Of a DNA stretch of 64,000 nucleotides, positions 830 through 40,300 are shown in pieces; position 1 is the stretch's first letter; the number at the start of each line of letters is the position of its first letter. The notes under the pieces were generated by a model that did not search any database, had not been told where the DNA came from, and was given only the letters and a program-made list of their open reading frames with translations. This stretch comes from a virus: the IMG/VR virus record IMGVR_UViG_3300042673_002246; one strand, written 5' to 3'. Made by a program: the position numbers and the translations under genes.

Positions 830-1334
830 CGTTGTTATCCTCCAATTGGCGCAAAATATTCATTGCGTTCCAGGCGTCGTCGCGCTGTTGCAGCGATTTA
901 AATGAATAAATATCCCTCTCAGACTTTACCATTCCTCCGCAGCAACTAGTTTGAACTTGAACAACATCAGTCTTTGTGTTTAAAAACTCCTGAATGCGGT
1001 CAGATTTTTGTTTAAGCGATTTTTGTTTTTTACCCAATTTTGAAACAACATTTAGACCGTCAAGCATTTTTTTGTCTATTGGCTTAGTTTTTAAAATAAA
1101 TGTGTCGTACCATGAACCCTTGGTTGGATTTTGTGGTGAATCCCAAAGAAATCGTAAAAATCTTGACGAGCGGTTCTTTCTGACGCCGATTGCTTTTGCT
1201 GCAAAAGAGAAAAAGTACACGAATACGGCACTTCCGTCCGGACGAACAACTGCACCATCTTTGGAATTTTTATTCGCGTCGATTATGTAATAAATACGGT
1301 CTTGGCCTACTGAACCAGCCAATACAGCTTTCAT
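822..1334 (-). CDS. Hypothetical protein (head operon)
   Basis: 170-aa ORF overlapping both neighbours (4 and 8 bp). Confidence 0.7.
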   Translation of the reverse strand: MKAVLAGSVGQDRIYYIIDANKNSKDGAVVRPDGSAVFVYFFSFAAKAIGVRKNRSSRFLRFLWDSPQNPTKGSWYDTFILKTKPIDKKMLDGLNVVSKLGKKQKSLKQKSDRIQEFLNTKTDVVQVQTSCCGGMVKSERDIYSFKSLQQRDDAWNAMNILRQLEDNNDV

Positions 1335-4300
1335 AGCATTGCTCCGCTTCTAGTCACAAGGCTAGGACTTTTCTCTTTTCTCATCTCTTCAAGAAGCTTT
1401 TTGGCGTTTTCTGCAATCTCGCGCATTATTTTTTCCCTAAGGACTGTCTCTATGTCGTCGGAGCGCTTTGCTGCTGCACTATAGCTCCTGGCATCAAAAA
1501 GATTAATTCCTTCTGGGTGAGCTATCCCTACATTATCAAAACCAAGTTTTTTATATTCATCTTGTATTTTTTTTGCAGCTCTATAGTTTCTTAATTTTTG
1601 CATGCTTTGCGTATTCATTTTGCTTCCAGAGTTAATTGAGTAAAAATACTCAATCTCTTCTTGTGAGAATCCTGCCGAACGAAGCCGCTCAGCAATCGAG
1701 CGATTATTGACTACGTCAGAAATATCTTCTTTGCCAGAATTTTCAGATAGTCGGGAGAATGGGTAGTTGATTTTCTCAACTTCATCCTTATCAAAACCGC
1801 CAAGAATTTGTGCTTCGAATACATCCCTGTCCACCCCTTGACCCAAGCTGCCAGGAGTTGGGAATTTGCCATCTCTATCTCTTCCACTATTTACGGAAGA
1901 GAAATCATCCGACATGCCAGCACCGAGAAGATTTAACGTTGATACTAGATTTCTGCTTCTCGAACCTGGGCTGCTACCACCGATATAAGCATCAACGATG
2001 TCATCACGGTTCATTGAGTTTAATGCAACCGGTCTGTGGCCGGTGCTTAACGAATCACCCTTACCATATGCAACTCTGTTCGATACATTTGGCTTGAGTA
2101 CAACTTCTATGTCGCCGAATGCGGTAAGTCCATCACCGACAATATCTTCGTCCATGATTTCAAAATTTGCATCCATGTCAATATTGCCTGAATTGTTTTG
2201 CAATACTTGATTTTGTTTTGCCTTTTTATATGAATTGTGAACAAGATATCCACTTACTGGCCTCAATTCATTTGGAATATCAGAAGATAGACCGATTGAT
2301 GATTGATAGTCTTTGGCAAAATTAATTGCGGACATTCCGATTCTCTGCGAGGAAGTGGCGTCAGTATCTCCGTCCGACATTTTCCCTGTTAGGACCTGCC
2401 TGCGCGTCCTTGACAAAACCCCACGCGTACGATTGTTATTGCGTGTTTCTGAAACATTCTTCATAAATGCCCTAAACCCATCGGCAAATGAGTTTTGTAG
2501 TTTTTTTCTGTTACTCACTGGTTTTCTTGGTCCTGAGTAATCGCCAAGTTTTTCCATCGCGCGCATGGCTGTGTTTTTGTCTATCGCTCCACTTCTTTGG
2601 AGCTCCCTGACAGCGACAAGAGCCAGGTCTTGATTTCCAGCAGCAGCAATTTGGTTTGCCACCTTTGCTATATCTTCTGATGTCCCACCGTTTCCAAAGA
2701 CGCTCATTGCCGCAATCGCCTGGACCATGTCTCCGCGCTCGGATTTTTCTACTCCGGCTTTTGTTAGCGCGCTAACTGCTCTTGCATTTGCATTTCTATC
2801 GTTTCTAGCTCGGTTCGCGGCACTTGTCATGTCTCTTCCAGAGCTGAACCATGTCCTTCGCGCAGCTGCCCTACCTGTGATTTCATCAGAATCGTCTGGT
2901 AGGACTATTCTGCGATTGGAACGCAACGACTGTCTTGTGGTGACTGCTTTTTTGTAGTCCGGACGTGCTGTGTATCCGACGGCACCAACCTTGATGAAGT
3001 CACCTCGCTCATAGAGCTCGTCGGCCATGTCTGAAATATTCGTCTTTAGGTCTTCTGCAACTTTCGCAATTTCCGAGTCGCTGATTTCAGCAATATCTCC
3101 CTTTTGCCAAGCATTTTCTGCACCAAGTCTTGCTTCTTTGATTCCATATACTTCCTGAAAAGCTCTGCCAAGTGTAAGGCCCTCAACGATGTCGGTTTGC
3201 ACTTCGTTAACATTTAGTGGAACCTGCAATTCATCACCTAAGCCAAGATTCGCTACGTTTATTCCTGCCCATCTGTGATGTCCATCCAAAATGTATTTAT
3301 CCATTGTTGCGAGTATCGGCGAACTGAACCACTGCTTATTGATTTCTTCAAGGAAGCGCCGTCTGAACTCATCGGACTTTCTATCAAGACCTTCTTGCTC
3401 TAGTTGGTCTGCGATTTCAAGTGCTTTTTTGGTTATTCCATCTGCCATGCCAGACACCTTTGATGCGACAAGCTGCTGCTGCGACGGAGCATACTCGTTT
3501 GCGGGGACTGTTTTTTTACGTACGGATGGACCAGTAGACGGGTCTTCTGGTGTAAGTGTTTCATTTAGGAATTGAATGAATTCACCCTCAAGATTCACCT
3601 CGGTGTTATTCCAATCCGTGTTCGAGTAGAACCAATTAAGTTCATCCTCTGACATTGGGTTCGATGATGGTTTGTTTTTCATTGGATGACGTTTTTTTAG
3701 GGATGCGTATCTTTCACTATCCTCAGTAGACAGTCCAGATGCAGGTTCCCATTTCCCATCGGCTTTACCATTTTTTAACATCCGTATGGCAATTGTGTTT
3801 GCGCCTTTTGTTCTTCCGTTTGTCTGGGGCATCTTTTCTCTATCTATGCCGATATGGCCAGAACACAGCAGATTTTGCATTGCATCATAAAGCCCACATA
3901 GGTCAGCCTGGTAGCTGTCGACATAGTCTTTTTTCATTTTGTTTACAAAATCTTTTGATGAGATATCGATGCCTGGATTGTTTGAAAGCACATCAGCTTC
4001 GTATGCTTTCTTGAAGTTCAACCATCTTTCGTTATTCTGCTCAATATGGGTCAAGGCGCTTTTCTGCACTGCCTTCTCTAGCTTTGCCTGAGCGCTAGCG
4101 GTAAGTGTTAGGTCTGCATCTTTTACAATCACGTGATGGCCGAGTGACATAAGCGCCAACGCTGTCGGTACGTCTTCGGCAATGTATGTATTTCTGTGAT
4201 TTGCGCTAATTGCCTTCCTTGTTGAGCGGACCAGTGATTTACCAAAAACCTTTGATATCTCGTCAGTAGTCATGTCATCGACGTTTTTTCCACCAGCAAC

Positions 4301-7300
4301 AACTTTGTCGAAAATGTCTGCCGCTTTTGCGGCTACCTCATCTTCCAGTTTCGCCCTACTTTCTAATTCCTCTACCGAGCTGATACGTCCACTAGACAGA
4401 CGTCCGCGCCTGTCGTTTGGTGCCATTCTTGAAAGTCGTTCTGTTCTTCTTGAGGTGGATGGAGCACCAGGACGAACTCCGCCAGAACGAACAACCCCAT
4501 TTTCCGACAACGAACTAATATCTTCGTCACGCATTCTCACTCGAACTCGTCTGTCGAAAGAACTGTGCATTTTAAATGCAGCATTTTCAATCAACTGTGC
4601 TATCTGTTCATCTGAGTACCTTCGAAGAGCTTCTGCAACATTTGAGTCGAGCATGTCTGATGCAATGTCGTCATACTCTTTTGAACCATTACCATTGAGG
4701 ATTGAGCGCAGCTCACGCATATCAGACGAAAGCTGCTTTCTCCGCGAAGACCGTCTTTCCTCTCTGGAGAGAGTTGGTCCAAAATGTGTAGACCCAGAAG
4801 AAAGTCGTCTTGATGGGGCTTCGCCGAAGGTTGACCCAAAATCTGCAACTGAATCAATTATCTCAGCGCTTGTCTCGTCTATATCTGCAGATTCTCTTTC
4901 TGTTGAGTCTGGCCTCGATATGCCGAGTTTGCTTCTTCTTATTATTTCTTTATCGGCAACTTCTCTAATTTTCTTAGAGTTTCCCTGTCGCCATATGGCG
5001 TCATCGGTTCCAGAGCTGATTCCGTCAACAAGGGCATCAAGTACATCAACGGTGTCTTTCTGTCTTACAATTTCAGCTCTTATCGTTCCATCTTTGTCGC
5101 GACTAATGATTCTCAGTTTCCCTGGAGGTGCGACGAACTTTTGCTCATCATCTTTTTCGGCATTTGGAAAGACTCCGCGATTTCCTTCTGCAACACTAAT
5201 GATTATTTTCCTCTTTACGCGGCCCGTTTCCTTATCTGTCCCCCGAGGTGATGATGTCGGTTTAGAGCGAGATGTGAGTACACGTCCAGAAATGAAATTA
5301 TCTACATTTATTTCATCCCCAACCTTTTTCCCCTTTACTTCTACTGCTGGGAAGTCGGATACAACCTCAAATTCAAATGGCGAATCTATCGACGACGAAT
5401 CAATTGCTTCCATTGTTGGGATGAGTATGTTGCGCACCTGTTCAGACAGCGAACCCTCGTCCTTGCGCCTCGGGTCTACGGCAAGGCCAAGACGGTTGAG
5501 GCGAGCATTTCTTGCATTCATCGCCCTACCTACAACAGTTTGCTTTTCCGGAGTTAACATCTGCGCTATTTCTGGGGCTACGAAATCATCCATCTCTCGG
5601 ATTGCAGCAGCTTGTTCTTTGGTTATCTTTCGACGCAGGCGCGCTTTCTCTCGTTTCGCATTGTCTATAGCTTCTTTTTGCGATTTAAATTTCTTTATTT
5701 TCTTAGGTTTTGGTTTGAGTAATTCATCTACCTTGCCATTAAACTCCCTACCGGCCCTTGCTGTTGCACGCGAATCACCACTCTCTGCAATTCGTGAAAT
5801 GTATTCAGAACGGAGAATTGAGCGCTCCTCCATTAATTCTTGAACTTCCGGGTCGTCTTCTAGCCTGTCTTTAACCAGGACGTCAATATCAGCGGCACGG
5901 CGAATCAGTTGATTTTCTGATTTTGTTTTTGCTGAAGATGTTATGTCATCAATTCTTTTTGCTTTAGCAAATGCTTTTATTTCTTCGTCATCCACCATTC
6001 CTGCATCACGTCTTGTTTTTTCGACTACCCTGTCGAATCTCGATGCCTCACCCTTTGCTCCAACTCCGAATTTTTTCCTCCACTCAGAACGCGAATCAGA
6101 GTACATTTTCTCGTAGTAGTCAAGTATTTTTTGACCTTCTTCAATTTTCTTGCTGAGGTCAGCCACTTTCTCTGTTCGCTCTGTTATTGATTCCTCTGTT
6201 GCATCTTCTGGTAGTTCAGAAAGCCCATTGAGCTCATTCGTAAAATTATCCAGTTGTGCGCGTATGTCTCTTCTTTGGGCATCAACCAGTGCAGCTTGTT
6301 GGAACATCTCTTCTTCATCGAGTTCCGAATAGAATTTTTTAAATTCTTTAAGTTTTTCCCGTCTTTCCTCTATTGTTCGTTTTTCAATGTCTCCGGACAT
6401 TTCATCGATTTCTTCATCGGAAAGGCGGTCTGCAGAAGAGCTGGAAGTCGGCCTGAATGTAGTACTTTCCAGTATTGCTCGTTCTTCTGCATCAATATCT
6501 GCGCGCTCGGCAGAAAGCCTGCTTCGCTCAACGTCATCCATCCACTCCAATGCTGCGTCTACGTCATCTCCGAAAATAAGTCCCTGTTCGCGTAGTGCAT
6601 GTAGTTCTGCACCAACCTCAAGACCCCATATTTCGCTGCCTTCTGTATATTCGGTTGGGTACTTGCCAGCAAGAAATGCAGCCACTTCACTGCGCTTTAA
6701 TGCATCTGACATATTTTTCAGGTCCAAGCCATCATTGGAATCCATCATCAAATCCATAACATCACCGCTTGTTAGATTTGTCAACAATCCTCCACGCTCT
6801 TCATCGAAATCAACAGTGACAATACGGTTTCCGACAAACGTCATCGCACCAGTTCTCTTGTCTTGTTTGTACTGAGGGATTTCAATTTTTCCGCCGTTAT
6901 CGATAGCTTTGCGAAGAATTTTTTGAATGAATGCCTGGCTTTGAATTCCGTGTGAAAACTCATGAAAAGCAATATGTTTAGTAAATGACCTCGGCCCGTC
7001 TACAAGCCCTGCCATGTGGCGTGCTGCATATTCGGAATTTATTAAGAAGTCTGCTACTGCGCTCTTCGCCTCTGAGTCACTGACAACCCCAACAGCAGAT
7101 ACGGCAAGTCGTTCATCTGCACGCATGTCTGGCAGCATCGATTCCTGGTTTGTCATGATGCGCTCTAGGTTTACGTGCATTACTCCACGTATTCCACCAG
7201 CACCTGGCCTCATGCTTCCGTGAACCGCAGTTCCTGCTTCGTCATTAGTGAAGAAATTGTATTCAATTCGGTCGAAAAATTTAGCGGTTCCTGGTTTTGT

Positions 7301-8707
7301 TTTGTACAGATGCAAAGCTGTTTCAAAATATGCTCGCTCTGTTTCGTAATATCTCTTAATGTCAGCTTCAATTAAGCGCTCTTGTTCTGGCTTGGTCAGC
7401 GCTTTCCAGTTAGCCACCTTCTGCAGGCGGGCTGTTATGTACCTGCGAACCTCGTCTGGTCTCATTCTGGACATATCGCCCATTCCAGAAACATTCGATA
7501 CGTTTAGGTCCCAACCATCTCTGCCGCCCGTTGCGACGAACAGCTCATTTAGCTTTTCTACTGCCTCGAATACGTCGGCATTTACTGCTCGTGCAGCATC
7601 GCTTCTGTCAACACCCAATTCGCTATACAGTTGCGAAACGCTTTCATCGAACTTGATAGCCGCATCCTGGGCATTTATCAGTCCGTTTCTAAAAAGTCGC
7701 TGACCTGGCTCAACGTCAACCGTACGCCAATCTGGGGAATCTAGTCTTTCTCCAGTTATCTCGTCGTAATACGGGCTTCTTGCCATTCTGACCGGAGCCC
7801 ACGGAACATTTGAATCCCACTCATTGTTTTTTATAAAGTTAAGTAGTGTTCTTACTCCGTTTGTAAAACCACCAAGCTCCCCTGATTCCTGCATCTCTTT
7901 TGCCTTACGCGCAGCAAAGCGAGAGAATCTCGACGCGCTAAAACCAAAACAGTTGGTTCCGAACATGTCCGTAAATTGGTTTGCAGCAGGGGTTCCCGGA
8001 GGGCATCTGAATTTGTTTAGCTCGTCACGGACTACGCCGAATCGAGCAGCAGCTCGCGCAATGAGATTTCCACCAGGAACACGAGAAGAGAGAGGTCTGC
8101 CAGGGAGGCGTTTTTTTTCTAGTCCGTTTTCTTTTTCTGTTAGTTCACGTAGTTTGGCTCGTCGCTCATCGAATGACATGCCTGCAGTAATAGAGAATCC
8201 ATCTATTTCTTCTGCCGATTCCTGGATTACATCATCTGTTTTTGCATTTACTTTAAATTTTGTAAGTTTTATTTGCGGTTTGCGATTAAGCTCAAAAAGC
8301 ATTTCGTCGAGATTTTTGAAATTCCCAGTTGTCGGCTCAATCCACCCAATGTTTGGCATGGTGTCCATGCCATTTTTGCTTTCGTATGATGGACTAAGTA
8401 CAAACCTTTTTCCTGGCTCCCACTTCGCTGCAGTTTCCCATCTGTGACCAAATTCGTCGGACTGAACGCCAGGTCTAGTGTCTCCAGTGAATTCACGTTT
8501 CTTATTGTCGGTATCTTCGTATGTTTGGCGATTTTCGCCAAGAGCTTTTACTGCGATATCGGCAATAAGTCTTTCCTGTTTGGCTGATTCAATAACTGAA
8601 GCCTTGAAAGTAAGAGCCTTTTTATCAACGTCACCAATAGTGCGCGCAGGCGCCAGCATGCGACGCGATACAACTACTCGTTCCTTGTCGGTGAAATCAC
8701 CCGTCAT
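1331..8707 (-). CDS. Giant polyvalent head protein: zincin metallopeptidase, degenerate VIP2-like ART, ParB/Srx domain, DUF3626-like domain
   Basis: FRCPPGTPAANQFTD (~7966-8012); HEFSH...EVGAE (~6950); ART-like VGDEINVDNFISG...VAEGNRG...DEQKFVAPPG (~5090-5350); GIDREKMPQ...PSQ...PILATMDKYILDGHHRW (~3270-3850); RPVSGY...FGDIEVVLK...GDSL...FEAQILGG (~1800-2310). Confidence 0.8.
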   Translation of the reverse strand: MTGDFTDKERVVVSRRMLAPARTIGDVDKKALTFKASVIESAKQERLIADIAVKALGENRQTYEDTDNKKREFTGDTRPGVQSDEFGHRWETAAKWEPGKRFVLSPSYESKNGMDTMPNIGWIEPTTGNFKNLDEMLFELNRKPQIKLTKFKVNAKTDDVIQESAEEIDGFSITAGMSFDERRAKLRELTEKENGLEKKRLPGRPLSSRVPGGNLIARAAARFGVVRDELNKFRCPPGTPAANQFTDMFGTNCFGFSASRFSRFAARKAKEMQESGELGGFTNGVRTLLNFIKNNEWDSNVPWAPVRMARSPYYDEITGERLDSPDWRTVDVEPGQRLFRNGLINAQDAAIKFDESVSQLYSELGVDRSDAARAVNADVFEAVEKLNELFVATGGRDGWDLNVSNVSGMGDMSRMRPDEVRRYITARLQKVANWKALTKPEQERLIEADIKRYYETERAYFETALHLYKTKPGTAKFFDRIEYNFFTNDEAGTAVHGSMRPGAGGIRGVMHVNLERIMTNQESMLPDMRADERLAVSAVGVVSDSEAKSAVADFLINSEYAARHMAGLVDGPRSFTKHIAFHEFSHGIQSQAFIQKILRKAIDNGGKIEIPQYKQDKRTGAMTFVGNRIVTVDFDEERGGLLTNLTSGDVMDLMMDSNDGLDLKNMSDALKRSEVAAFLAGKYPTEYTEGSEIWGLEVGAELHALREQGLIFGDDVDAALEWMDDVERSRLSAERADIDAEERAILESTTFRPTSSSSADRLSDEEIDEMSGDIEKRTIEERREKLKEFKKFYSELDEEEMFQQAALVDAQRRDIRAQLDNFTNELNGLSELPEDATEESITERTEKVADLSKKIEEGQKILDYYEKMYSDSRSEWRKKFGVGAKGEASRFDRVVEKTRRDAGMVDDEEIKAFAKAKRIDDITSSAKTKSENQLIRRAADIDVLVKDRLEDDPEVQELMEERSILRSEYISRIAESGDSRATARAGREFNGKVDELLKPKPKKIKKFKSQKEAIDNAKREKARLRRKITKEQAAAIREMDDFVAPEIAQMLTPEKQTVVGRAMNARNARLNRLGLAVDPRRKDEGSLSEQVRNILIPTMEAIDSSSIDSPFEFEVVSDFPAVEVKGKKVGDEINVDNFISGRVLTSRSKPTSSPRGTDKETGRVKRKIIISVAEGNRGVFPNAEKDDEQKFVAPPGKLRIISRDKDGTIRAEIVRQKDTVDVLDALVDGISSGTDDAIWRQGNSKKIREVADKEIIRRSKLGISRPDSTERESADIDETSAEIIDSVADFGSTFGEAPSRRLSSGSTHFGPTLSREERRSSRRKQLSSDMRELRSILNGNGSKEYDDIASDMLDSNVAEALRRYSDEQIAQLIENAAFKMHSSFDRRVRVRMRDEDISSLSENGVVRSGGVRPGAPSTSRRTERLSRMAPNDRRGRLSSGRISSVEELESRAKLEDEVAAKAADIFDKVVAGGKNVDDMTTDEISKVFGKSLVRSTRKAISANHRNTYIAEDVPTALALMSLGHHVIVKDADLTLTASAQAKLEKAVQKSALTHIEQNNERWLNFKKAYEADVLSNNPGIDISSKDFVNKMKKDYVDSYQADLCGLYDAMQNLLCSGHIGIDREKMPQTNGRTKGANTIAIRMLKNGKADGKWEPASGLSTEDSERYASLKKRHPMKNKPSSNPMSEDELNWFYSNTDWNNTEVNLEGEFIQFLNETLTPEDPSTGPSVRKKTVPANEYAPSQQQLVASKVSGMADGITKKALEIADQLEQEGLDRKSDEFRRRFLEEINKQWFSSPILATMDKYILDGHHRWAGINVANLGLGDELQVPLNVNEVQTDIVEGLTLGRAFQEVYGIKEARLGAENAWQKGDIAEISDSEIAKVAEDLKTNISDMADELYERGDFIKVGAVGYTARPDYKKAVTTRQSLRSNRRIVLPDDSDEITGRAAARRTWFSSGRDMTSAANRARNDRNANARAVSALTKAGVEKSERGDMVQAIAAMSVFGNGGTSEDIAKVANQIAAAGNQDLALVAVRELQRSGAIDKNTAMRAMEKLGDYSGPRKPVSNRKKLQNSFADGFRAFMKNVSETRNNNRTRGVLSRTRRQVLTGKMSDGDTDATSSQRIGMSAINFAKDYQSSIGLSSDIPNELRPVSGYLVHNSYKKAKQNQVLQNNSGNIDMDANFEIMDEDIVGDGLTAFGDIEVVLKPNVSNRVAYGKGDSLSTGHRPVALNSMNRDDIVDAYIGGSSPGSRSRNLVSTLNLLGAGMSDDFSSVNSGRDRDGKFPTPGSLGQGVDRDVFEAQILGGFDKDEVEKINYPFSRLSENSGKEDISDVVNNRSIAERLRSAGFSQEEIEYFYSINSGSKMNTQSMQKLRNYRAAKKIQDEYKKLGFDNVGIAHPEGINLFDARSYSAAAKRSDDIETVLREKIMREIAENAKKLLEEMRKEKSPSLVTRSGAML

Positions 8708-8724
8708 TGCGGGTTGCCTTTTTG

Positions 8725-10347
8725 TTAGAGATTGTCGATTTGCTCTTCGAGCAGCTGAAACTCAACCAGTGAGGCGAGGAAGTTTGCATCATTTGGCACC
8801 TCATTCTTTTCTGAAGCACCAGCAATCCAGTTTGCTGGAATCAAGCTTTCGAGCTTCAGAGCCCGCGCCCGCTTCATGATGTGCTTCTTCGCTGCTTCTT
8901 TATCCTTGGCGCGACCAAATGCCTGAATTGCATTGCGCAAATCAGCTTCGGTAACAATTGGGTATGAACCGTCCGGAAGAGCCATGCCTTCTTTTGCAAG
9001 GTCCATTCGTCGTTCTTCGTTGAAAGCACGCTTCAAGGCAAGCTCTGCTGCTTCTGCTTCAATTGCTTCAGCTTCATCTTGCTCGTATCTGTCGTATCCC
9101 AGAACCTCTCCATCGAGGGCAACGAAAACATCGTATGACTTCCCGTCGAATCCTTCGATTTCAACTGCGTACGAATCAAATCCTTCGAATACGTCTGGCT
9201 CAACAGCCACGACATGTCCATCGAATGATTTTACTGCGATTTCTGCAGCTTCAGTGAAGTCAATCAACTTGTACTCAGACGCCTCTGATTTTTGCTCAAA
9301 TTCATTTACGTCAAGTTTGTGGAAACCCATAACTTCAGCAGTTGTTCCGTCAATGAATATTTCCTTGACATCTCCACTCTTTGTTTGCACATCAACCACA
9401 AACATGTCCGCATCTGCAGAATAGCCAGAGTCGATAACACGACCATTGAACATCTGTTCAGCAAGTCCTTCAACATGAAGGATTCCTGGCATTCCTTTTT
9501 CCGCAATGCATCCACCTGGGCAGTCATCGCATACTGGGGCCGAGCCAGCATAAGCCTTGCGCTCCAGGGAGCAGACGTAACCTGACGCACCAATGTCCGA
9601 TGGCTTTATGCCCATCGACTTAATACGTGTTTCACGGAGGGCATCCCAGTATTCATTACCGGCATCAAAAGACTTTTCCTCAGTATCTTCTTCTTCGTCT
9701 TCGTCCATTTCTTCTTCGTCTTCTGCGCCCTCTTCGGCTTCTTCTTCCATGTCCATGTCTTCTTCTTCCATGTCCATGTCTTCTTCGTCTTCTTCGTCTT
9801 CTTCGTCTTCGTCCATTTCGTCTTCTGACATATCCATGTCTTCAGCCTTGAACTTACGGCGTCCCTTTGGACCCATTCCGTACATTTTTTCGGATTCAGA
9901 ATCCATCTCTTCCTCGTCTGCGTCAGTGTCGAGGTTTTCGTCATCTTCTTCGTCCATGTCGTCCATTTCTGGTTCGACATCTTCTTGCATCTCTGGAACC
10001 ATGCGCTTTTTGGCCATTGACTCTTCTTCGTCTTCGGCCATTTCCTCGTCATCCATTTCTGCGTACATTTCTTTCATGGATGGTTTCTTCTTTTTCTTCT
10101 TGTTGCGAGAAACCATGTCCTCTGACATTTCTGGCATCATGTCTTCTGTCATATCTTCCGACATGACGCTTTTCCCATCCAATCCCGAAACTGGAACCAT
10201 CTTCATTTCAACTGGTACCGCGCCGCATTTGGCGCAAATTTTTGCGCCCTTGACAAATCCGCACTCGCCAGAAGCAAGTCCTTTCGCGCACTTCAGCACG
10301 TCTCCGTCGCTGTCGATGCTGACATTAACCTTCTCGTCGTAGCTCAT
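8725..10347 (-). CDS. Acidic head/scaffold-like protein: Cys clusters, D/E/M-rich tract, two PepSY-like repeats, C-terminal DUF6582-like domain
   Basis: CAKG...C...CAKCG; long EDEEDMDMEEE tract; IDFTEAAEIAVKSFDGHVVAVE...YAVEI...YDVFVALDGEVLG; ALPDGSYPI...DLRNAIQAFGRAKD...HIMKRARAL. Confidence 0.6.
   Translation of the reverse strand: MSYDEKVNVSIDSDGDVLKCAKGLASGECGFVKGAKICAKCGAVPVEMKMVPVSGLDGKSVMSEDMTEDMMPEMSEDMVSRNKKKKKKPSMKEMYAEMDDEEMAEDEEESMAKKRMVPEMQEDVEPEMDDMDEEDDENLDTDADEEEMDSESEKMYGMGPKGRRKFKAEDMDMSEDEMDEDEEDEEDEEDMDMEEEDMDMEEEAEEGAEDEEEMDEDEEEDTEEKSFDAGNEYWDALRETRIKSMGIKPSDIGASGYVCSLERKAYAGSAPVCDDCPGGCIAEKGMPGILHVEGLAEQMFNGRVIDSGYSADADMFVVDVQTKSGDVKEIFIDGTTAEVMGFHKLDVNEFEQKSEASEYKLIDFTEAAEIAVKSFDGHVVAVEPDVFEGFDSYAVEIEGFDGKSYDVFVALDGEVLGYDRYEQDEAEAIEAEAAELALKRAFNEERRMDLAKEGMALPDGSYPIVTEADLRNAIQAFGRAKDKEAAKKHIMKRARALKLESLIPANWIAGASEKNEVPNDANFLASLVEFQLLEEQIDNL
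9686..9845 (-). repeat. Low-complexity coding repeats (21-bp EEEDMDM-type unit x2; 9-bp EED-type unit x3)
   Basis: tcttcttccatgtccatg and tcttcttcg units on the + strand. Confidence 0.8.
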
Positions 10348-10411
10348 AGAACTCCTGTTTGTGCAGGAAAATGACCGGTCTGGACATTAACCATTAAATT
10401 GTGCTCTAAAT

Positions 10412-10421
10412 TATAACGTAT
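10412..10421 (-). promoter_or_regulatory. Putative -10 element (cgtTATAAT) upstream of the 540-aa gene
   Basis: Perfect TATAAT on the minus strand in the 10348-10489 intergenic gap; AGGAG RBS before the ATG. Confidence 0.5.
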
Positions 10422-10489
10422 CATGTCGCAGCAGCGTGAATTAGCAACATTAACTAATTTCTGCAAATTTATTTACTACTGCAATATTC

Positions 10490-13400
10490 CTATTCTTTTG
10501 TTCCTGATTTGCCGAACATGGTTCGACCTTCTTCTTGAAGTCTCTTACGTGCGTTTTCTAATTGCTCTTTACTGAAAATGTCCTCAATTGTGTGGCTTGT
10601 GCCAAATATTTCATTGAAACGATTGACCACATCCTGAAGCTCGTTGGATGAGTATCTTGGCTCATCACCCTTAATCTTGCTGAAAGTCTTGCCGCGTGTT
10701 TTTGCTGCATTGTTTAGAAGAACGGAAAGATTGCTCGTACCAAGGATGTATTCCTTATTTCTCTTGGTGTTTCCACCAGAACCCTTCTGGGTGTTTGATA
10801 TGAACTCAACCATCGCCTCGGCAACATTTGCCTTGCTTGCGCGAAGTTCACCGTCAAGCTTTTGACCATTTTCTGGCCAAACGCTTTCCGCATTCTCAAT
10901 CATCCCTGTCCGAATCATCTCCTGGATTGCTGCAACTGGCACTCCGTCACTTTCCCATGACTTCCTGTCTTTCGGATTGGTCAAACCGACATCATCCATC
11001 CCGAATGACCGCTTCATTCTTTCTCTTAGCTGAGCCATCCATTCGTCTCTGTCAAGACCAAGATTTTCGATGAGATTATCCAACTTGAAATCTCTTCTTG
11101 ATGTCTTTGCGCCAGCTGGGTTTGTTTCATTGACCGTCGGTGCTGGTGCTTCTGGAACAAAGTCTGGCATTCCCTCGTAAATAAGGTCAGCCTCGGCAGA
11201 AGCTTCGCCATCAGCGTCTTCTGGGTTTGGCGTAAATCTTCCAGTTGCCCTAAATTTTGCCACTGGGTCGACTTCTCCAAGAGTGGAGTATTCATCTGAA
11301 GAAATGATTTGATTTTCTTCCCTGTCGGCCCAGAACGGATATGCGTCTTTCCCAAATGTTTCAATGATGAATCTGTCGCGCATATTGGCTCTACCGAGAT
11401 TTTCGGCAAAACGTTGAGCTGACGACATCTTCTCCACGCCCGGCTCGTCTGAAGTTACTGGCGAGAACAATCTCCATCCACCAAATTCAGGTCTATTGCC
11501 GAGTTCTGCAACGAGGAATCTGACGGCATTGTGGGATATTCCAGAATCATCATCAGAAATCCTCTTTGCATCCTCTGGCGATAAATTTAGCAATCTTGAA
11601 AGGTCGGTGTTGGAAATTGGTTCCGACTTGGTCCACTTTACATCAGCAATTGTGTTGTCTGGATTTCTGACAACATCAAACTCAGTTGGAATTCTGATTG
11701 ATTCCTTCAGGCTCTTTACTGGAAGCATCCATGTATCTGCATCTGGATTCGAAAGATTTTCATTCCCAGATACGCGACCGATAGTTACTTGTGGTCGACG
11801 CTTCATTGCGGCGGCAGCCTTATCCAGGCCCTCATTTATCTGTCGTCTGCGCTCTTTTACTGTTCCGGACTTACTTGACGTATCTAGCGTTATTCCGCGT
11901 TTTCTAAAACCATCCCAGAATCTTCTGGCAAACGCGAATGACTCTCCAGTCTTTGAGCCTCTAATTGCAGCAAGATTTGTAGCATTGATATTGTCCGCAT
12001 AAGTGGACCCGCTACTCATTCTTCGTGCTTTTCTGTCAGCGCGATTTGAACTGTTTACTGAACGTGGCCCACCAACTGCTGCTGTCCGTTCTGGCGCTTG
12101 GACTCCTGGCGTTTCTGGTGCTGAGGTTTCTGTAGTGGCCTGTCGCTCAACATCTCCGCCACGAAGTCTTGCTCGTCTTGCCGACCTGTTGGTCCCAGTT
12201 CCTGGAACTGCTGTTTCAGGTACGCTATTTACGCGACCGCTTGAAAGTATCTCTCTTGCGCCATCAGGGAATACTTGCTCACCATCTCCAAATGGGTTCC
12301 AAAATCCAGAAGGAGCCTGCTGCTCCTCGGTTAGGAACTTTTCAATATATTCAAAACCCTTTGGATTTTTCTTTGGGTCGATAATCCATGACGTTGCCTC
12401 AGACAACTGAATGCGCTTTTTTGCGCGAGTCATCATGACGTAAATAAGGTTTTCCATTTCACGACTTATGTCATTCCCTGGAAGTATCGAACCATCGTCT
12501 TCAAACTTTGGCTGGAAGAAATCGTCTCCGGCAACCACGTTGTCGAATTCCAAACCTTTGGCTGCGTGTGTTGTTAAGAACGATGCATCAACTTCTGGCT
12601 CGTTTGCTGAGTCAGTTATCATTCTTCCAACAAGGCTGAGGAGCAATCCAGTCTCTTCTGGATTATCTCCCTTTATTCTTACAGCGTCATATGCTGGTGC
12701 ATTCGATGAGCCAGCCTTACGTGGTACGTACTGCTTTTCTATTGTGACTTTTCCTTCCAGATTGAGGTCTTTAATCATTTTCTCAATCCGGCGTCGCATC
12801 ATAGGCTTTTCGCCGTTCTTGTCACCTGTGTACTGAATTTTTCCTGCTGCGTCCCTGAACTGGTAGACATCAATTATTCCTTCACCGGAAATAATTACTC
12901 CATTCTCCCATTTCCCATCTGCACCAAGACTTTCGGTATCCAGTTTCCAGAAAACTTCTCTGCTTGGTGTCTGGCCGGTTGGGTTCGGGATGATGTTAAA
13001 TCGCTTATCACGATTCATCTTGTACGCACCCTTGGCTCCACCGCCGCCTTTACCTGCTTTTTGTTTTCCGAGAGCAATTAGTTCCTCACCAGAAACCGTC
13101 GAAGAACTTCCATCTATATTCTTGAATGGGTCAACATCGAGTGGTTCTTCTATTTCTCGTATTCTTGCTCTAGTTAAGACCTCGCCAGTTTGTGGGTCCC
13201 TTCGACCTAGCAATCTGTTTAGCCAGTCAAGTGGGGAAAGTTGATTTCCTTCTGCGTCTCGAACCTGCAAAAGCTTGAGCATTGAACCCAGTTGACCATA
13301 GGATGATTTTTGACCTGCGCGTTTTCTGATTTCCTCCATTGTCCACGCATTGCCAATAATCTTTGATTCGCGTGGTCGTGTCCCAACAGGACGGAGGACA

Positions 13401-16400
13401 AACTGATAGTGGCGTAGGAATTCAACCATGTCTCTGTATTTTTCGGCAGGCAATCCAACGATTTTGTCTGGATGCGCTCCGATGAATTCCAAGGCAGCTG
13501 TAAGGGTGTTTTTGTTTGAATAAGAAATATATGCCCACGTACCATCTGCGCTTGTTGGTATCTGACGGTAGAGGATTCCTTCCGATTCTGGAACGATGTA
13601 ACCACGAGCCTTGTCCAGTAGCTCATTTCTCTCTTTTTCTGGCATATCTGCCAGTGACTGTCCGTCTGGACCAGAAATTCCGTATTTCTTTTGTATTGAA
13701 TCAAGTTTCTTACGCAAATCATTTCCGGTGAGTGTTCCAAGATTGAAGTCATGAGAAACCACATCCTGAAGTCGGCCAAACAACTTGTAGTCCGCAGAAA
13801 CCTCATCAATCCCATTCTGCCTGTCGGTCATGTTTCCACGACCAAGCATCAAGTTTCCAAGGAACGCAACTGTCTTTCCGTATCTGAATGAGTCAGTCAA
13901 CGTCAAGTTGAAATCTGGATTGAGTCGAGCGAATGAGTCAGATGAACCACGGAATCCATAAATTGATTGCCGTGGGTCACCGACCATGACTATTGCAAGA
14001 TTATTATTCGCAATATTGTCTTCAATCACCTTTTGGAGAACTGGGTTTACGTCCTGAGCTTCGTCAAAGAAGAAAGTCGAAATGGGCTTATCTTCCGTTG
14101 CATATCGGCGACGCAATCCGGCGCGTGCTCCACCACCTGTGTAGACATAATCCACACCATCAACTTGGACTATTGAGCCTGGGTCAAGTTTTTTGTCCTG
14201 TGCTCTTGCATCTTTCACTTTTCTTGTGCCGTGACCAACCATTCCAGCGTCTGTACGCAGATTTGGTTTTTGCATAGCCCAAATCTTTACTTGCTGGTCG
14301 TAGTTGGGCAGCACATTGCTCTTCGGGTCGAGCGTGTCAGACCACATTTTGAGTGCTAGGTCAACCCACTCTTGTGGTATCTGGTCGAATGCTGTTTCGG
14401 CAGGGTCGATTGGGTCGCCAGACTCGGCAAGTTGCTTATTTCTTTCAATTTCGTGTGGACGAAGCTTGAAATGTTTTTCACTAAGCGCATCATCATCACT
14501 CTGTGAATAACGAGTAAGGGCGTTGATGAGAACAAGACCATAATCGTCAGCAGTCAGCTCCACCCCTTCGTGGGTAAGTCCGTCTGGGTATTTCGTGCCG
14601 AAATCGTAGTGTCTCGCTACGTCGCGACCACCGCTTTCTGTTTCAAACGAAACGTATCCCAAAGTTCTGAATCCAGCTTTTTTCAATCCTGTTGTATCGA
14701 CAGTTTTTCCACCATATCCCTCTGCAGACGTTTGTCTTGTTGATTTAGGGTTTGCTGATGAGTAGTACTCGTTGCCGGCGCCAATGCCTATCTTTTTTAG
14801 TTTCTCTTTGAACTCTGGAGAAATTCCTGGCCTGTCTTCGAGCAATAGGGACCAGTATGCCAATTGGTTAATCGAAGAGCTTCCTGTGTTGTCAGGCATT
14901 CTACGTGCTGCTTCTGCAGCATTTTTCTTATTGAATGTTATGTAATAAAACTGTGACTCCGGAGATTCCTTGGCCATACGAATAACAGATTGTTCAACTG
15001 TGGTGGTTTTACCTGCTCCGGCTCCTGCGCGAACAGCAGCCAATCCACCTTCACCAGTTTTTGTGAAGTGTGCAACTGTGTCCATAACGTCTTTTTGTTC
15101 ATCAGTCGGCTCAAACTTCATTCCAAACATTTCCATGAACGAACCCTCAGTTCGCTCAATCTTGCGCTTAGGGTCCTTGGCGCCAACAATTGGTCCGCGG
15201 CCAGAAGAAAGACGCTTGTTAATTTGGTTATACGTGTTGCCTTCTTCGTCCTTGATAACGAATCCGGTTATGCCGCTTGAAAGACGATTATTCTCGTAGT
15301 CCTCAAGGATAGTTTTTACTGCAGATGGACCTTGTCCACGAACACGCACGCGTTGACGTACTTTGTTTTCTGGTGTTGGTGTGCCGACAACTGGCTTTTT
15401 CTTTGGAATTGGGATAGTGATTCGACCAACGATTGGCGCTTCAATTGTGTAGTCTTCTTTACCCTTGCGTTCGCTGTCTGGAACACCAGCGCGCTTGCGC
15501 AGCGTTGCTGACTTATTCATAATGTAGTCAACAGCCTGCTGTCCGCCTTCAATTGCACGACGGATTGAGCTTGGGTCGTCCTGCAGTGCTTTGCGCCAGA
15601 ACGCTAGGTACTGAATATGGTCTTCGCGTATTTGAGGCTCTACACCGAGGAATCCCATCGCAAATGAAGCACCGATTTCTGCGATGAGTTCTTCAAATGC
15701 GTATTTCTTTCTCTGTTCTGGGGTGCCCTTCATTCTGCCGCTTAGGTCCCTCTTTAGTCGCGATGGATGGGCTGTCCAGTGAATAATTTCATGCAGAACT
15801 GTTCCATAGAAAGCAATTGGTTCAATAAAGTTCTCAAATGGAGGAACATTTATCGTGTCGTCGTTTGGGTCGTAGAATGCGCTGACTCCCTGTTCCTTGT
15901 ATCTAGGACCAATTTCTTTGATTACATTTTCAATGTCTTCAAGTCGTTGTGCCGCATCAAGTTTTTCTGTTTCTTTGACTTCGTAGACCCATGCTGGCAG
16001 TCCGTCCATTTGGTCGGCGTTGAATACTGTTTCAATTTTGAAACCCTTTTCACCAGTACGAATTCCGTCATCATTTTTTATGTCAAACGGAACGAGGATA
16101 TTGACACCAAGTTCTCCTGGTTTTGGTTTTGCTTTCTTATTCAACTCACGCCACTGCGAACGTCCAGCCCAACGATTTGTTTTGTATTTGCGCTTTGATG
16201 CGACCTGGGAAAGAATCAATTGATTCATGCCTTGATAAATACGATTTCTTCTTGTTGGATTTCGACCGTACAACTCTGGCGAGCGCCAAGGCACTTGCCA
16301 CTGGCCAGCTTTGCTTGGGTCCTTTAATATCTCATCAAGCGCAGCAATAATTGCTTCACCCATTTGCTGGTACATGTCTTTAATACGAGCTGCATCTGCT

Positions 16401-23684: not shown

Positions 23685-24401
23685 ATGGAACAAAATCAAG
23701 TAAAAGACGCTTCATCAATCATGAAGGAACTGTATGCGCAGTTCCCACAAGAATCAGAACGCACAATCGTCAAGAGCGGCGTATCACTTGTTTACTTGCC
23801 AATCAGCGAAGTAATCAATCGACTAAACAAGGTTCTCGGCGTGGAGGGCTGGTCATTTGAAATTATTTCAGTTCGTCGCGACGAAATTGACCAAGACGAA
23901 TTGGTAGCACACGTTGCGCTTACTGCAGAGATTGGCGACAAGCGAGTGGTTAAACATGGATTTGGTGGCTCAAACGTAAAGCGCGCTAAGAGCAATCAAA
24001 AGCCAGTTGACCTTGGAAATGACTTTAAGGGCGCGGTTTCTGATGCGTTAAAGAAGGCTGCCCAACAATTGGGAGTCGGTCTCTATCTTGCTCGCTCGGT
24101 TGACGCTATGGACGCCGAAGACGCAATTCTTCTTGATGCATCAGATGATGGTTTTGCGCGTATTCCAGAACAGGTTCCAACACCTGCGCTTTCTGAGCTT
24201 GAGGAAAAATGGAATACTTTCATCGATATCACCAAGGGGCTGAAGAAAGAACAGAAGGAAGAGTTGAACTCGTTCTGGTCAACCCACTCTGGAGGCCGAC
24301 CAAAGCCGACGAAGTCAAGTGCCACAATCGAGGACTTGCAAGCACTCATCACAGAGGCATTGCGAATTCAGTTTGGTGGGCAGTATGTCACTAATTCCTG
24401 A
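23685..24401 (+). CDS. Rad52/Rad22-family (Sak-like) single-strand annealing protein
   Basis: YL...VINRLNKVLGVEGWSF...KGAVSDALKKAAQQLGVGLYL. Confidence 0.88.
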   Translation: MEQNQVKDASSIMKELYAQFPQESERTIVKSGVSLVYLPISEVINRLNKVLGVEGWSFEIISVRRDEIDQDELVAHVALTAEIGDKRVVKHGFGGSNVKRAKSNQKPVDLGNDFKGAVSDALKKAAQQLGVGLYLARSVDAMDAEDAILLDASDDGFARIPEQVPTPALSELEEKWNTFIDITKGLKKEQKEELNSFWSTHSGGRPKPTKSSATIEDLQALITEALRIQFGGQYVTNS

Positions 24402-25167
24402 TGGTGGATTTGTCGCTCCAGAGTTTCTATCCCCATCATCACTGGGAACGTTCAGGCAGTGTCCGCAAAAATTTAAGTACAGCAAAATAGATGGTCTCCA
24501 TGACCCAAGTGGCCAAGAAGCAATTCTTGGAAATTTCGTTCACGACGTACTTGAAGATTTGTACAAACTTCCGCCAGAACTTAGAACTCTTGAGCAGGCA
24601 AAAGACCTTGCTCGCAACCAATGGGCGAATAAATGGTCGGCAGAAGCTTCGTCGGTAATTCACTCAGAGAAAGAACTCAACAGATTTCGTTGGGCTGCTT
24701 GGTGGTGTATTGAGAATCTTTGGCTAATTGAGGACCCGACTACCGTTTCTCCTTTTAGTATGGAGTCTTACGTTCGCGGAGATATAGGCGGAGTAAAAAT
24801 TCATGGATTCATCGACAGGCTAAGCGTTAATGGAAATAGCGCAAAAGTTAGTGACTACAAAACAGGGAAGACTCCAAAGAAAAATTATCTATCCGACAAA
24901 TTTTTTCAGTTGATTGTCTACACTCAACTTTTGTCTAGCCTAGACATAGATGTTGACCAAAAGTCCGTTGAACTCCTCTATTTAAAAGACGGAGTGAAGT
25001 TTGAAAAAGATGTTTCACTGGATGACATTAAATCAACCGTTGAGTCAATTCAATCGACAAAACAGGAAATTGACAAATGTTGTAAGACCGGTGAATTTGT
25101 TGCCAATAAATCTATTCTTTGCAATTGGTGTGGCTTCAAGGGAATCTGCCCTGCGTGGAATAATTAA
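24385..25167 (+). CDS. RecB-like PD-(D/E)XK exonuclease with 4-Cys Fe-S staple (start revised to 24385)
   Basis: LSPSS...CP, GNFVH, GFIDR, DYKTGK, QL..Y, CNWC...CP. Confidence 0.88.
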   Translation: MSLIPDGGFVAPEFLSPSSLGTFRQCPQKFKYSKIDGLHDPSGQEAILGNFVHDVLEDLYKLPPELRTLEQAKDLARNQWANKWSAEASSVIHSEKELNRFRWAAWWCIENLWLIEDPTTVSPFSMESYVRGDIGGVKIHGFIDRLSVNGNSAKVSDYKTGKTPKKNYLSDKFFQLIVYTQLLSSLDIDVDQKSVELLYLKDGVKFEKDVSLDDIKSTVESIQSTKQEIDKCCKTGEFVANKSILCNWCGFKGICPAWNN

Positions 25168-29584: not shown

Positions 29585-29593
29585 TAGTTAATA

Positions 29594-37358: not shown

Positions 37359-40300
37359 ATGGCCGACGAGACAGTCAATATAAAAATAAAGATTGATGCG
37401 AAGACTCGTGAACTTCGCAAGGTCATGGCTGAGCTTGGCGCGCTCAAGAAGATGGAGCGCCGTTTTGCTAGCGGTAGAACCATTGAAAACTACGCCCAAT
37501 CCACCACCCGAAGTATTTCAGGTATGGCGTCAAAGTGGAAACGCAGTTTCGATGAAATAGATGCTGCTACCAAGATGACTGGAAAGTTTCTTGGTGGCTT
37601 CTTGAAGCTCGCCATTAAGAGCGTAATTATAGAAATGGCGCTACTTTCAGCAACAATGATTGGAGTTCACGCACTCTTCAAGGCTGGTCAATTCTTGGTC
37701 AAGGCGTACCAAGGAGCTATGCAGTTTTTAGCTGGTGGGGCTGCCGCAGCTGCGATGGCAATAGGAACAGTTGCTGCAGCAATACGTGAGCAGCAGGCAG
37801 CAATGTTTGCATATAGAGGAAAGGGAGCAAAAGAGTTCGGTTCATCCATGAATCAAACGAGAATGGCAATGCGAAACCTTCAATCAGATGTTTCGCTTGC
37901 AGGACTTGGTGTCGATTCGCTGAACAAGGCATTTGGCGTTATGTCTAAGACCATGAATATGGCGCAGATAAATGCGAGCAATAAAACAATCCGAGCTTTG
38001 ATGGATTTTGGTTCAGCAGGACAGGACCCAGCAAAAGCTGTTGAACAAGTTGCCGCAGTAGTCGCTGCTCTCTCTGACCAGAAAAAGGGAATCGGCGAGG
38101 TAATGGCCGAAGCAAAAAAACTCGGTCCAGAAATGCAAAAAGCACTGAAAGATGCGAATATTAAAACGAAAGACCAGTTTAAAGAGCTTTTATTTTCTGG
38201 AAAGCTTGCTGAAAAAGGAGGTGTTGCTGGACAGTTTGAAGCAGTAAACAACACACTCATCGGACAACTTAAAGCATATTTCGGAGTAATCCGTAGCGAA
38301 TTTGCAGACTTCGGCGACCAGTTCCTTGAGCCAACCAAAAAAGCATTTGAAGAAGTATTTGGGATTATACGAAGAGACCTTGCTCGAGCAAGCGCAGCAA
38401 TTGCCGGAGGTCCTGGATTCGATTCATTTACCGGTGGTTTTGTAACGGCAATAGACAAGCTGTCCAACTGGATGGTCACGATGTTGCGGGAGTATTTACC
38501 AAAAGCACAAGGAATGTTTGAAAGAATGGGCAATTGGTTTTCTAACTTCCGCCGTGGTTGGAACTTGCTTCTCGATAAGCTACGACCTCTCATAGATGGC
38601 GCTAGAGTTTTGTACAAAGCGTGGGACCCAATCTGGGAAGCCATTAAGCGTGGCGCAGACAACCTTACTCTTTTCAGAGAATTGCTTATCAAGAATGAAG
38701 ACAGTGTTGCCGAATTTGGGCAGCGCATAGGCGACTTGATTGACAGCTTGGCTAAATATTTCATGAACATGAAAAAAATGTTTGCTGACATGGCTCCTTT
38801 TATAAACGACCTTCTCGCCGGAGTAAAAATGATGTTCGACCTTTTGTCGAAAATGCAAACTCTCGGTGCTGGAAATGGTCTTGCGTCCGCCCTTGCGCCT
38901 CTATTTGGTTTTGCTATAGCGGCACGAGGAATGAAGAGCGTTAAGGGCATGATGATGCCTGGCGTCGGCGCAATGAGTACCCAGCAAATGAACGTAACAG
39001 CAGGAACAGTAAATGTTGGAAGTGCTGCACTTACAGGACCAACTGGCCCTTCGGAAATGTCAAGACTCGCCAGCGGAGGAAGGGCTGCAGCTGTCAGTGG
39101 TTCGCCGGAAGCAAAAAAGGGTCTCGCCTCAGGACTGGCTACTGCTGGTATGGCATCGAAAGCTGGAGGTTCACCGAAAGAATTTCCAGGAGCTGGCTCC
39201 ATTACTCCATCCACCGGATTCTTTCAGGCCCTTGGCATAGGGTATCGAGAGCCAACCAATAACGGGATGGCAGCAGCAACAGCCCGAAGGATTGAGGGAT
39301 ACGCACGGCGTCGCGATGCTGCGCTCGGGTTTACAACTGGCCCTGGCATTGGTTCGCGAATTGGTGCATCAATCATGGCACGCACTAGGGACTATGCATC
39401 AGCAGCAGCAATGACCCCGGCAGAAAGGGGTGGTCTCAGCGCATCAGAATATGCCGCTGGCGGAGTTGGTGGTGGCGCTACATACGGAGAAGCAATGCGC
39501 AACTCAATGACGAGGGCCGGAGCGCATGTTCGTTATGGGGCACTTGCAGGAGCCGATAGGGCTCAACTATTTGCGCGAAGAGTTGGTACTGCTGCTTCAC
39601 GCGGCATGGACTACATGAGACAGGCTGCATATGACCCAAATCTAAAAAATGCTGACGGACAAACCGTGGGTGGATATGTAAACCTCCAGGAACAAAGAAA
39701 TGCCATACGAGCAAACCGAGATTCAGCAATCGATGCACGCGGCGGAAAATTTCTCGCAAGGCAAGCAGAAAATATACGTGCCATGCGACAGAATTTACGC
39801 TTAGAAAGAAACATGACAAAATTCGGTGCAGCGCAGCAGAAATTCGGTAAGAGCTTCGGTGGTCGAATGGGTACTGCGATGGGGCTTGGAATGGCCAGCC
39901 AGTATGCGCCAGAAGAAATGCGTGGAGCAATGGCGCTCGGCGCAACCGTATCGCAGCTTGACCCGCGACTTGGTATCGCGGTAGCTGGTATAGGTGGCGC
40001 CATGACTGCTCGTGGCGGACTCAAAGGCGGCCTTGCTGGAGCAGCTGGCGGAGCAGCGCTCGGCGCGCAGTTCGGAGGAGCATACGGAGCACTGGCTGGT
40101 GCGGTAATCGGAGGAGTATTTGGCGTAATCAAAGGCAGCATAAATAAAGGTGCTTATGAAATGAAGCAAGCCAGAGAAGTAGCTCGTGAAAGTATCAGGC
40201 AAATATTTTCCGGCATTGCAACTGCTGCTGGAACACAATTTGAAAGAAATAAAAGAACATACGAAGCTGGCGGCATGTTAAGCGGTGGCGGTGCGTTCGG

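Follow-up and report, generated by a model that had tools for sequence, protein, structure and literature searches.

A short peptide, in its commonest form LSSG, recurs in giant proteins of a tailed phage at what appear to be the joints between their modules. The phage is an uncultured one, IMG/VR record IMGVR_UViG_3300042673_002246 from metagenome data (JGI, ENA, and NCBI), a single 133,891-bp contig of 46% GC; the stretch analyzed here (the window, 64,000 nucleotides) comprises its bases 64459-128458. Two of the giants, giant 1 (P0001) and giant 2 (P0002), are encoded in the window and a third lies to its left, and the tail tape measure protein carries the peptide as well. As far as sequences can tell, what is new is a junction code that varies by lineage, is common to the tape measure and several giant polyvalent proteins, and is found where cassettes are exchanged and genes joined or divided. 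We lean toward reading this code, set in flexible joints, as an endoproteolytic site for a lineage-specific, trans-acting phage protease; the giants would then be polyproteins, and a zincin of giant 2 would be the likeliest reader. A first-pass annotation of the window had proposed that giants 1 and 2 are polyproteins cut at such a site by a head protease. The protein-level motif at module edges has held up, and the polyprotein reading appears to be its best explanation; the limit to two proteins has not, and the head protease as reader and two of the listed items (ISSG and MSDG) probably do not hold.

A peptide motif concentrated in three giant proteins

The tripeptide SSG occurs eight times in giant 1 (2954 residues) and four times in giant 2 (2458 residues), in 12 of 12 cases with L, F, M, or I in front. 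All of these copies were found where the first-pass annotation had placed them, and its guess that chance would supply less than one agrees with the 0.43 expected from composition. None of 5000 shuffles reached 12, and LSSG is the most frequent tetrapeptide of the two proteins. With giant 3 (2205 residues), which lies outside the window, the total for the three giants comes to 19 sites, where 0.60 would be expected (Poisson 2.5e-22). The remaining proteome (140 open reading frames, about 32,500 residues) holds 4 sites against 2.8 expected, which is background, so the predicted enrichment holds against both shuffles and the other proteins. At the DNA level the 19 sites comprise 18 distinct 12-nt strings, with serine codons of both the TCN and the AGY family, so that it is the peptide which is under selection; the signal is one of protein and not a DNA repeat, as had been claimed.

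Relatives show the same preference. Family counts for giant 1 cover the 120 homologues listed of 299 found: LSSG occurs there 1029 times against 11 expected, FSSG 145 against 5.6, and MSSG 48 against 4.0, and 1258 of the 1334 SSG tripeptides have L, F, M, I, or V in front. Homologues of giant 2 (n = 88) contain 344 sites against 24.8 expected, and most giant 3 homologues have 6 to 15 SSG each, with L before nearly all of them. The family logo reads [R/K/G/S]-[L>F>M]-[S, rarely A or G]-S-G-[R/K/A]-[R/K], the residues around it are hydrophilic, and one sublineage of the giant 1 family has G-LASG. Two copies from the first-pass list fare poorly by this standard. The ISSG of giant 2 is unconserved in homologues and lies in a modeled helix; it is probably not a junction. 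MSDG (positions 2369-2380) is probably no site either and finds no family support, LSDG being seen 7 times against 12.5 expected.

Sites in flexible joints between modules

AlphaFold2 models were built with homologue alignments for residues 600-1420 of giant 1 and 1225-1960 of giant 2. Segments of low model confidence (predicted local distance difference test, pLDDT, below 50) make up 20% of the modeled residues and hold 7 of the 10 modeled sites (binomial 9e-4), in line with the claim that the motif occupies flexible linkers at module edges. Among giant 1 homologues, sites are kept at aligned positions though identity over the 20 residues around them is no more than about 20%. When giant 1 is aligned with these homologues by BLAST, 32% of alignment ends fall within 15 residues of a site, compared with 8% for random positions; relatives therefore diverge in their cassettes at these points, and the expectation of changed modules with retained SSG was borne out. 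Sites are often paired around spacers of 24 to 76 residues.

Recognizable domains lie between the sites. Giant 1 runs from an S78 prohead protease through a Cys-rich region and a leader module to a series of cassettes: an unknown one, a helix-turn-helix (HTH)-like one, ArdC-N plus MPTase zincin, the UvrD helicase, and an unknown C-terminal module. Its S78 domain is of the HK97 type, with a profile score above the curated cutoff and a portal gene adjoining. The Pfam match to ArdcN has an E value of 1.2e-12, that to MPTase-PolyVal (PF18818, residues 1140-1267) 2.2e-33 (115 bits against a cutoff of 27.5), and that to the UvrD helicase (residues 1418-2319) 2.2e-16. As the first reading had placed them, ArdC-N and MPTase (residues 992-1267) have sites 976 and 1358 on either side, the whole helicase is enclosed by sites 1382 and 2370, and an HTH, a weak Pfam match at about residues 895-927, falls between sites 822 and 940.

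Giant 2 has no family match in Pfam, PHROGs, or NCBIfam, and several cassettes likewise gave no usable match there. Its residues 1724-1844 adopt a ParB/Srx-like fold in the model (VIA-align Z 7.9, root-mean-square deviation 2.2 Å over 73 residues; next unrelated row Z 3.7), and each of the top 18 VIA-align rows is a ParB, Noc, KorB, or sulfiredoxin (Srx) structure. With its DGxHR-type motif, this region resembles a ParB N-domain in both fold and signature. Foldseek alone gave no significant row for the giant 2 model, and the ParB match came on re-alignment. The domain lies between sites 1437 and 1954, which agrees with the earlier placement of a ParB block there.

Giant 3 contains a DEDD exonuclease (residues 632-816) and a HEWGH zincin, and its gene adjoins primase genes, outside the head module. 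The leader module of giant 1 (residues 537-619) recurs with 71% identity at residues 22-102 of giant 3, and in both proteins the first junction comes right after it. All 28 LSSG-lineage relatives examined for giant 3 have the leader at the N-terminus, with a junction 28 to 55 residues further on. Exactly one HExxH is present in each of the three giants. Each chain joins several unrelated domains, as polyvalent proteins do: S78, ArdC-N, MPTase-PolyVal, and UvrD in giant 1, HExxH and the ParB/Srx-like domain in giant 2, and DEDD exonuclease and HExxH in giant 3. Giant 1 moreover has the MPTase-PolyVal zincin found in proteins of that class.

Replacement of the code in sister lineages

In divergent relatives of giant 3, LSSG is absent and another peptide recurs at the same joints: G-SKS-TT, ten times, in P0167; G-MRS-[RQ]S in P0164 and P0165; SG-[RK]MS-T in P0160 and P0161; and LSG-SMS in P0162 and P0163. 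The exonuclease begins with KPxYPRKP, and in every lineage the lineage's own peptide stands directly before it. Head regions differ in the same manner, with G-SKS-TT in both giants of lineage C (G001), I-S-G-R-M-[GS] in five proteins of lineage D (G002), I-T-G-[AS]-M in lineage G (G004), and G-V-S-G-x-M in G005. Capsid proteins are 72-78% identical between lineages with wholly different codes of 5 to 6 residues.

Gene organization shifts at the junctions as well. The prohead protease of the sister lineages is a separate gene product of 468-831 residues with one junction motif after a leader-like region, and the cargo is spread over a varying number of giants, up to five proteins of 1280-3697 residues. 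Junctions have therefore been points of gene fusion and fission. Giants of 1280, 3464, and 3697 residues in other lineages carry the code and have no HExxH, and the reader must therefore act in trans; cutting of each giant in cis by its own zincin was rejected as a general rule on account of these three proteins.

The tape measure protein follows the sheath gene and has three [LF]ASG, compared with a shuffle mean of 0.41 (3 or more in 171 of 20000 shuffles). In the LSSG lineage, six tape measures contain two or three sites each, and the positions near residues 36-50 and 570-590 are each kept in five of the six with diverged flanks. The tape measure of G001 (lineage C) has GSKSTT and GSKSAT, that of G004 (lineage G) two TGAM, and that of G002 (lineage D) ISGKM and two GRMG. 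Those of G003 (lineage D) and G005 gave no match to their own lineage patterns, and each has one LSSG-type and one TGAM-type tetrapeptide. Tabulating codes against tape measures gives a diagonal pattern for the LSSG lineage, C, and G; in lineage D the own code scores one (G002) or none (G003).

A candidate reader and the case for cutting

In the mechanism we propose, [R/K]-[L>F>M]-[S>A]-S-G would mark joints between independently folding cassettes in the three giants and at two conserved places of the tape measure, and one phage-encoded, lineage-specific protease would cut this code in trans. The giants would yield about twenty products, including a protease-containing head piece, ArdC/zincin, the UvrD helicase, the DEDD exonuclease, the ParB-like module, and unknown modules. 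The likeliest candidate for the reader is the HExxH zincin that giant 2 carries in its N-terminal module, which is free of the motif. We infer the cutting, the identity of the enzyme, and its timing (before assembly, in the particle, or after ejection). A broader scheme remains tentative and, taken whole, somewhat doubtful: a dedicated protease would free about twenty enzymes from three precursors and also trim the tape measure, possibly only after ejection, and RLSSG, GSKSTT, ISGRM, ITGAM, and GMRS would belong to orthogonal protease/code pairs.

Several observations commend the giant 2 zincin. The first site in the 88 giant 2 homologues is usually near residue 1220-1340, and 87 of them have an HExxH near residues 480-640. 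H183, E184, H187, E298, and E302 are invariant in 30 homologues, so that the HExxH comes with a downstream third ligand. The module was found in every lineage examined and is 27% identical between lineages A and C, and the S78 domain of giant 1 is 68-78% identical to the stand-alone proteases of lineages with other codes. The zincin is favored over S78 because its active site is invariant while the module has diverged, S78 being nearly unchanged. A protein-atlas search with the zincin module gave only subthreshold leads (below 0.9), to zincin-like and Wss1-like clusters. Prediction of a complex of module residues 400-760, Zn, and a 56-residue linker with two RLSSG gave no verdict either way (score 0.00).

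Other observations weigh against cutting by this zincin. The module has no match in Pfam, PHROGs, NCBIfam, or PDB sequences; its fast evolution is common to other cargo modules and gives no specific sign of co-evolution with the code; and the lineage C code, G-SKS-TT, lacks a hydrophobic residue suited to a zincin S1' pocket. All codes hold a Ser after L, M, K, or R, loosely like the K↓S of the capsid (↓, cut). Site 976 of giant 1 is modeled at pLDDT 62-72 with no clear linker. The evidence for cutting, moreover, is comparative throughout.

Two observations concern the N-terminal part of giant 2. Residues 201-260 (window 7928-8107, minus strand) form a block, K-x-R-C-P-P-G-T-P-x-A-N-Q-F-T-D ... 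S-N-C-F, which is the best-conserved part of the protein (about 75% identity) and can be recognized in every lineage regardless of the junction code; its pair of Cys may serve as a metal knuckle or as a docking element. A "PLSSR" in the conserved N-terminal block of giant 2 was considered as a pseudo-substrate and rejected, being lost beyond the closest relatives.

Alternative explanations

The S78 prohead protease fused to giant 1 might itself cut the motif in the prohead after loading, as the first-pass annotation had supposed, in the manner of T4 gp21 and the phiKZ and SPN3US proteases acting on internal and ejection proteins; we consider this unlikely, and S78 a weaker candidate reader than the giant 2 HExxH zincin, which fits better. 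Its position is suggestive: it forms the N-terminus of giant 1, the genes concerned lie between the portal and capsid genes, and in other lineages the separate protease itself has a junction motif after its leader. The leader and first junction also resemble a cleavable capsid-targeting propeptide such as those of SPN3US (PMC10052503). Judged by the shared Ser of the codes and its loose likeness to K↓S, an S78 enzyme of broad specificity may still be the reader. The near constancy of S78 across lineages with quite different codes argues the other way, as does its presumed capsid substrate. The major capsid protein (MCP) has a delta domain of about 100 residues with a sharp variable-to-conserved change at K↓SIGQMF, and K↓S[IL]G is probably its S78 maturation site by analogy with the HK97 capsid protein, which is cut at K103/S104 (PMC10275583). 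This site, K↓S[I/L]G, is constant across lineages whatever the junction code, and the preceding QL(S/T)SREIK is shared by the LSSG lineage and G005, whose code is G-V-S-G-x-M. A scan of the MCP for [LFMI]SSG found none, and the junction motif is thus absent from the maturation site as placed by HK97 analogy. Nor are the code-bearing proteins confined to the head: the tape measure, a tail part not expected in the prohead, carries the lineage code at conserved positions. The "QLSSRE" in the MCP delta domain was rejected as a junction-like site, as it is the same in G005 despite the other code and is lost elsewhere in a pattern unrelated to code.

Alternatively, the motif may stay uncut and serve as a docking or modification signal in linkers, recognized by a lineage-specific chaperone, packaging or ejection factor, or kinase that also acts on the tape measure. 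Set-wise substitution and presence in all proteins expected to pass the tail would suit any co-evolving reader, L-S-S with a basic residue in front looks like a basophilic kinase site (RxxS-like context), and the comparative nature of the evidence for cutting leaves room for such a role. Separation is nevertheless the better fit to sites that lie exactly at cassette boundaries, often paired around spacers, with homology blocks ending there. Protease sites typically show such strictly small residues (S-G) and exposed, hydrophilic surroundings, and fission and fusion of genes occur at junctions, the protease being separate in other lineages and giant 3 beginning with the leader. We regard an uncut signal as improbable.

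It is very unlikely that a host protease reads the motif after ejection into the cell, with the code following host range. Tape measure and cargo would then share an enzyme only outside the capsid, and the codes do differ between lineages that may infect different hosts. Capsid proteins 72-78% identical alongside such dissimilar codes would, however, require very different proteases in hosts that are probably related, and the phages always encode, beside the substrates, a conserved zincin whose active site is intact. Chance, low-complexity linker composition, or a DNA-level repeat, suggested by linkers rich in S, G, and R, is refuted by the shuffles (0 of 5000), the 18 distinct 12-mers among 19 sites, and the hydrophobic residue before SSG in 1258 of 1334 cases.

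Genome setting

Judged by its terminase, portal, sheath, tape measure, and HK97-like capsid genes, the phage is of the myovirus type. The MCP matches actinophage capsid proteins best (49% identity). GenBank phages included no relative with the giants and gave domain-level matches alone (ArdC, helicase, protease, and capsid, in actinophages and others). A scan of the portal protein found no junction motif. A putative location of the giants in the head and their injection are suggested only by the S78 fusion and the gene order (portal, giant 1, P0003, giant 2, and the capsid gene further downstream).

P0003, encoded between the two giants, has no family match in Pfam, PHROGs, or NCBIfam. It begins with a Cys-rich stretch, is extremely acidic and rich in Met in the middle, and is kept at the same place in other lineages with 47-60% identity in the C-terminal half. 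It might act as a scaffold or neutralize the Arg/Lys-rich giants. Its Cys-rich start contains a single GLASG copy inside a probable zinc knuckle.

Between the terminase and tail genes, on the plus strand, lie a Cas4/RecB-like exonuclease (phrog_69, 2.7e-28; window 24319-25167) and a RuvC-like resolvase (phrog_159, 7.8e-32; window 27864-28400). Window 28736-31283 (plus strand) holds a row of a ParB-like protein, a PAPS-reductase-like protein (phrog_2302, 8.9e-75), and a second ParB-like protein, and looks like a DNA-modification cluster.

Table 1. Locations of the giants, their junctions and modules, and related genes (window positions unless another reference is given)
Feature	Position	Strand	Remarks
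Giant 1, P0001, 2954 aa	10490..19354	minus	open frame; order of parts in text
S78 (HK97-type) prohead protease domain, residues 31-174	18833..19264	minus	Pfam PF04586 2.3e-9, 38 bits against cutoff of 21; phrog_80 head maturation protease 1.1e-25
Leader module, residues 537-619	17498..17746	minus	contains DxDxDG; just before first junction
Junction FSSG, residue 624	17474..17485	minus	kept in 39/59 aligned homologues; pLDDT <50
Junction LSSG, residue 822	16880..16891	minus	kept in 25/37 aligned homologues; pLDDT <50
Junction LSSG, residue 940	16526..16537	minus	edge of low-confidence break, model residues 332-339
Junction LSSG, residue 976	16418..16429	minus	just before ArdC-N; kept in 72/83 aligned homologues; S and G invariant in alignment A1
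Junction LSSG, residue 1358	15272..15283	minus	pLDDT <50
Junction LSSG, residue 1382	15200..15211	minus	just before helicase; kept in 40/53 aligned homologues, LASG/FASG in 8 more; pLDDT <50
Junction LSSG, residue 2370	12236..12247	minus	just after helicase
Junction MSSG, residue 2446	12008..12019	minus	9 homologues read LSSG at aligned place
Acidic protein P0003, 540 aa	8725..10347	minus	between giants 1 and 2
Giant 2, P0002, 2458 aa	1331..8707	minus	motif-free N-terminal module of about 1230 aa with HExxH, then junction-separated cassettes
Zincin module, candidate reader, residues 400-760	6428..7510	minus	HEFSH at 582-586
ISSG, residue 1230, probably no junction	5009..5020	minus	homologues read IKSG, IASG, or LSKN; helix, pLDDT about 61
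Junction LSSG, residue 1302	4793..4804	minus	conserved in homologues with indel-rich flanks; pLDDT <50
Junction LSSG, residue 1437	4388..4399	minus	conserved in homologues; pLDDT <50
ParB/Srx-like domain, residues 1724-1844	3176..3538	minus	invariant DGHH
Junction FSSG, residue 1954	2837..2848	minus	FSSG/LSSG in homologues extending that far; pLDDT <50
Giant 3, 2205 aa	G000:C1:37854-44471 (L001:1855-8472)	minus	about 20 kb left of window; seven LSSG, mostly RLSSG
HK97-like MCP	genome 59626-60975 (L002:3626-4975)	minus	just left of window
Portal protein	19461..21527	minus	Pfam Phage_portal 1.3e-51; directly upstream of giant 1
Terminase	21798-23111		
Sheath	34541-35995		
Tape measure protein, 1570 aa	37359..42071	plus	follows sheath gene; three [LF]ASG
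FASG, residue 36, context RR-FASG-R	37464..37475	plus	LSSG, FSSG, LASG, or FASG at aligned place in 5/6 LSSG-lineage tape measures
LASG, residues 570 (R-LASG-G) and 589 (G-LASG-L)	39066..39134	plus	Gly/Pro-rich stretch; site there in 5/6 LSSG-lineage tape measures
Sister-lineage protease and giant, examples	L083:8571-9977 and 10001-21082; G002, G004, G005 loci L099-L104		

Relation to known systems

For polyvalent proteins of phages and conjugative elements, packaging and delivery with the DNA and processing by zincin-like metallopeptidases have been proposed (Iyer et al. 2017, PMC5512222). The giants resemble them in combining ArdC-N, MPTase zincin, helicase, nuclease, and ParB-like domains. 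A text search of that paper (PMC5512222) found no cleavage motif or mention of linkers ("linker" occurs 0 times); a junction code that varies by lineage and also appears in the tape measure goes beyond what it describes. Assemblin-like peptidases are always C-terminal there (PMC5512222), whereas the protease of giant 1 is N-terminal. Literature searches on LSSG as a phage cleavage motif and on polyvalent proteins linked to prohead proteases found no description of the motif.

Head proteases offer a second comparison. Those of phiKZ (gp175) and SPN3US (gp245) cut after AXE and T4 gp21 is likewise motif-coded; N-terminal propeptides are removed and the protease cuts itself (PMC10052503, PMC5694885). 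The short motif is a shared feature, and the leader with its first junction resembles such a propeptide. In T4, phiKZ, and SPN3US, however, the cuts mostly trim propeptides of single head proteins, whereas here the motif separates many cassettes of one chain. Unlike LXE in T4 and AXE in phiKZ and SPN3US, the code described here differs from the probable capsid site, occurs in a tail protein, and shifts as a set between close lineages while the head protease barely changes.

The large antirestriction proteins DarB and DdrB of phage P1 are packaged in the head and delivered with DNA (PMC9024508, PMC12810830); DdrB is processed, and a C-terminal zincin has been predicted for it (PMC5512222). In P1 each Dar protein has a gene of its own and lacks a repeated junction peptide, and the comparison extends to shared domain types only. 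Tal of TP901-1 is self-processed at NGGGNSGGGD, at the junction of a structural linker and an enzyme domain (PMC11409707). Like the tape measure, it is a tail protein with a short junction motif of small residues, but it has a single site, no code shared with the head, and no lineage-wide replacement. Among RNA viruses, polyproteins such as those of picornaviruses contain a repeated short site cut by a virus-encoded protease (3C), and protease and sites co-evolve. The present case differs from 3C in concerning a double-stranded DNA tailed phage and another type of protease, with cutting that is predicted.

In sum, if the code is a cutting signal, large anti-defense and DNA-handling payloads would be carried as few genes and delivered as separate proteins, a step that Iyer et al. 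(2017) proposed with no site given. The motif would then let annotators split giant "hypothetical" phage proteins into units and would explain the points of cassette exchange. Its lineage versions would form a natural series of protease/site pairs, orthogonal to one another and useful in protein engineering.

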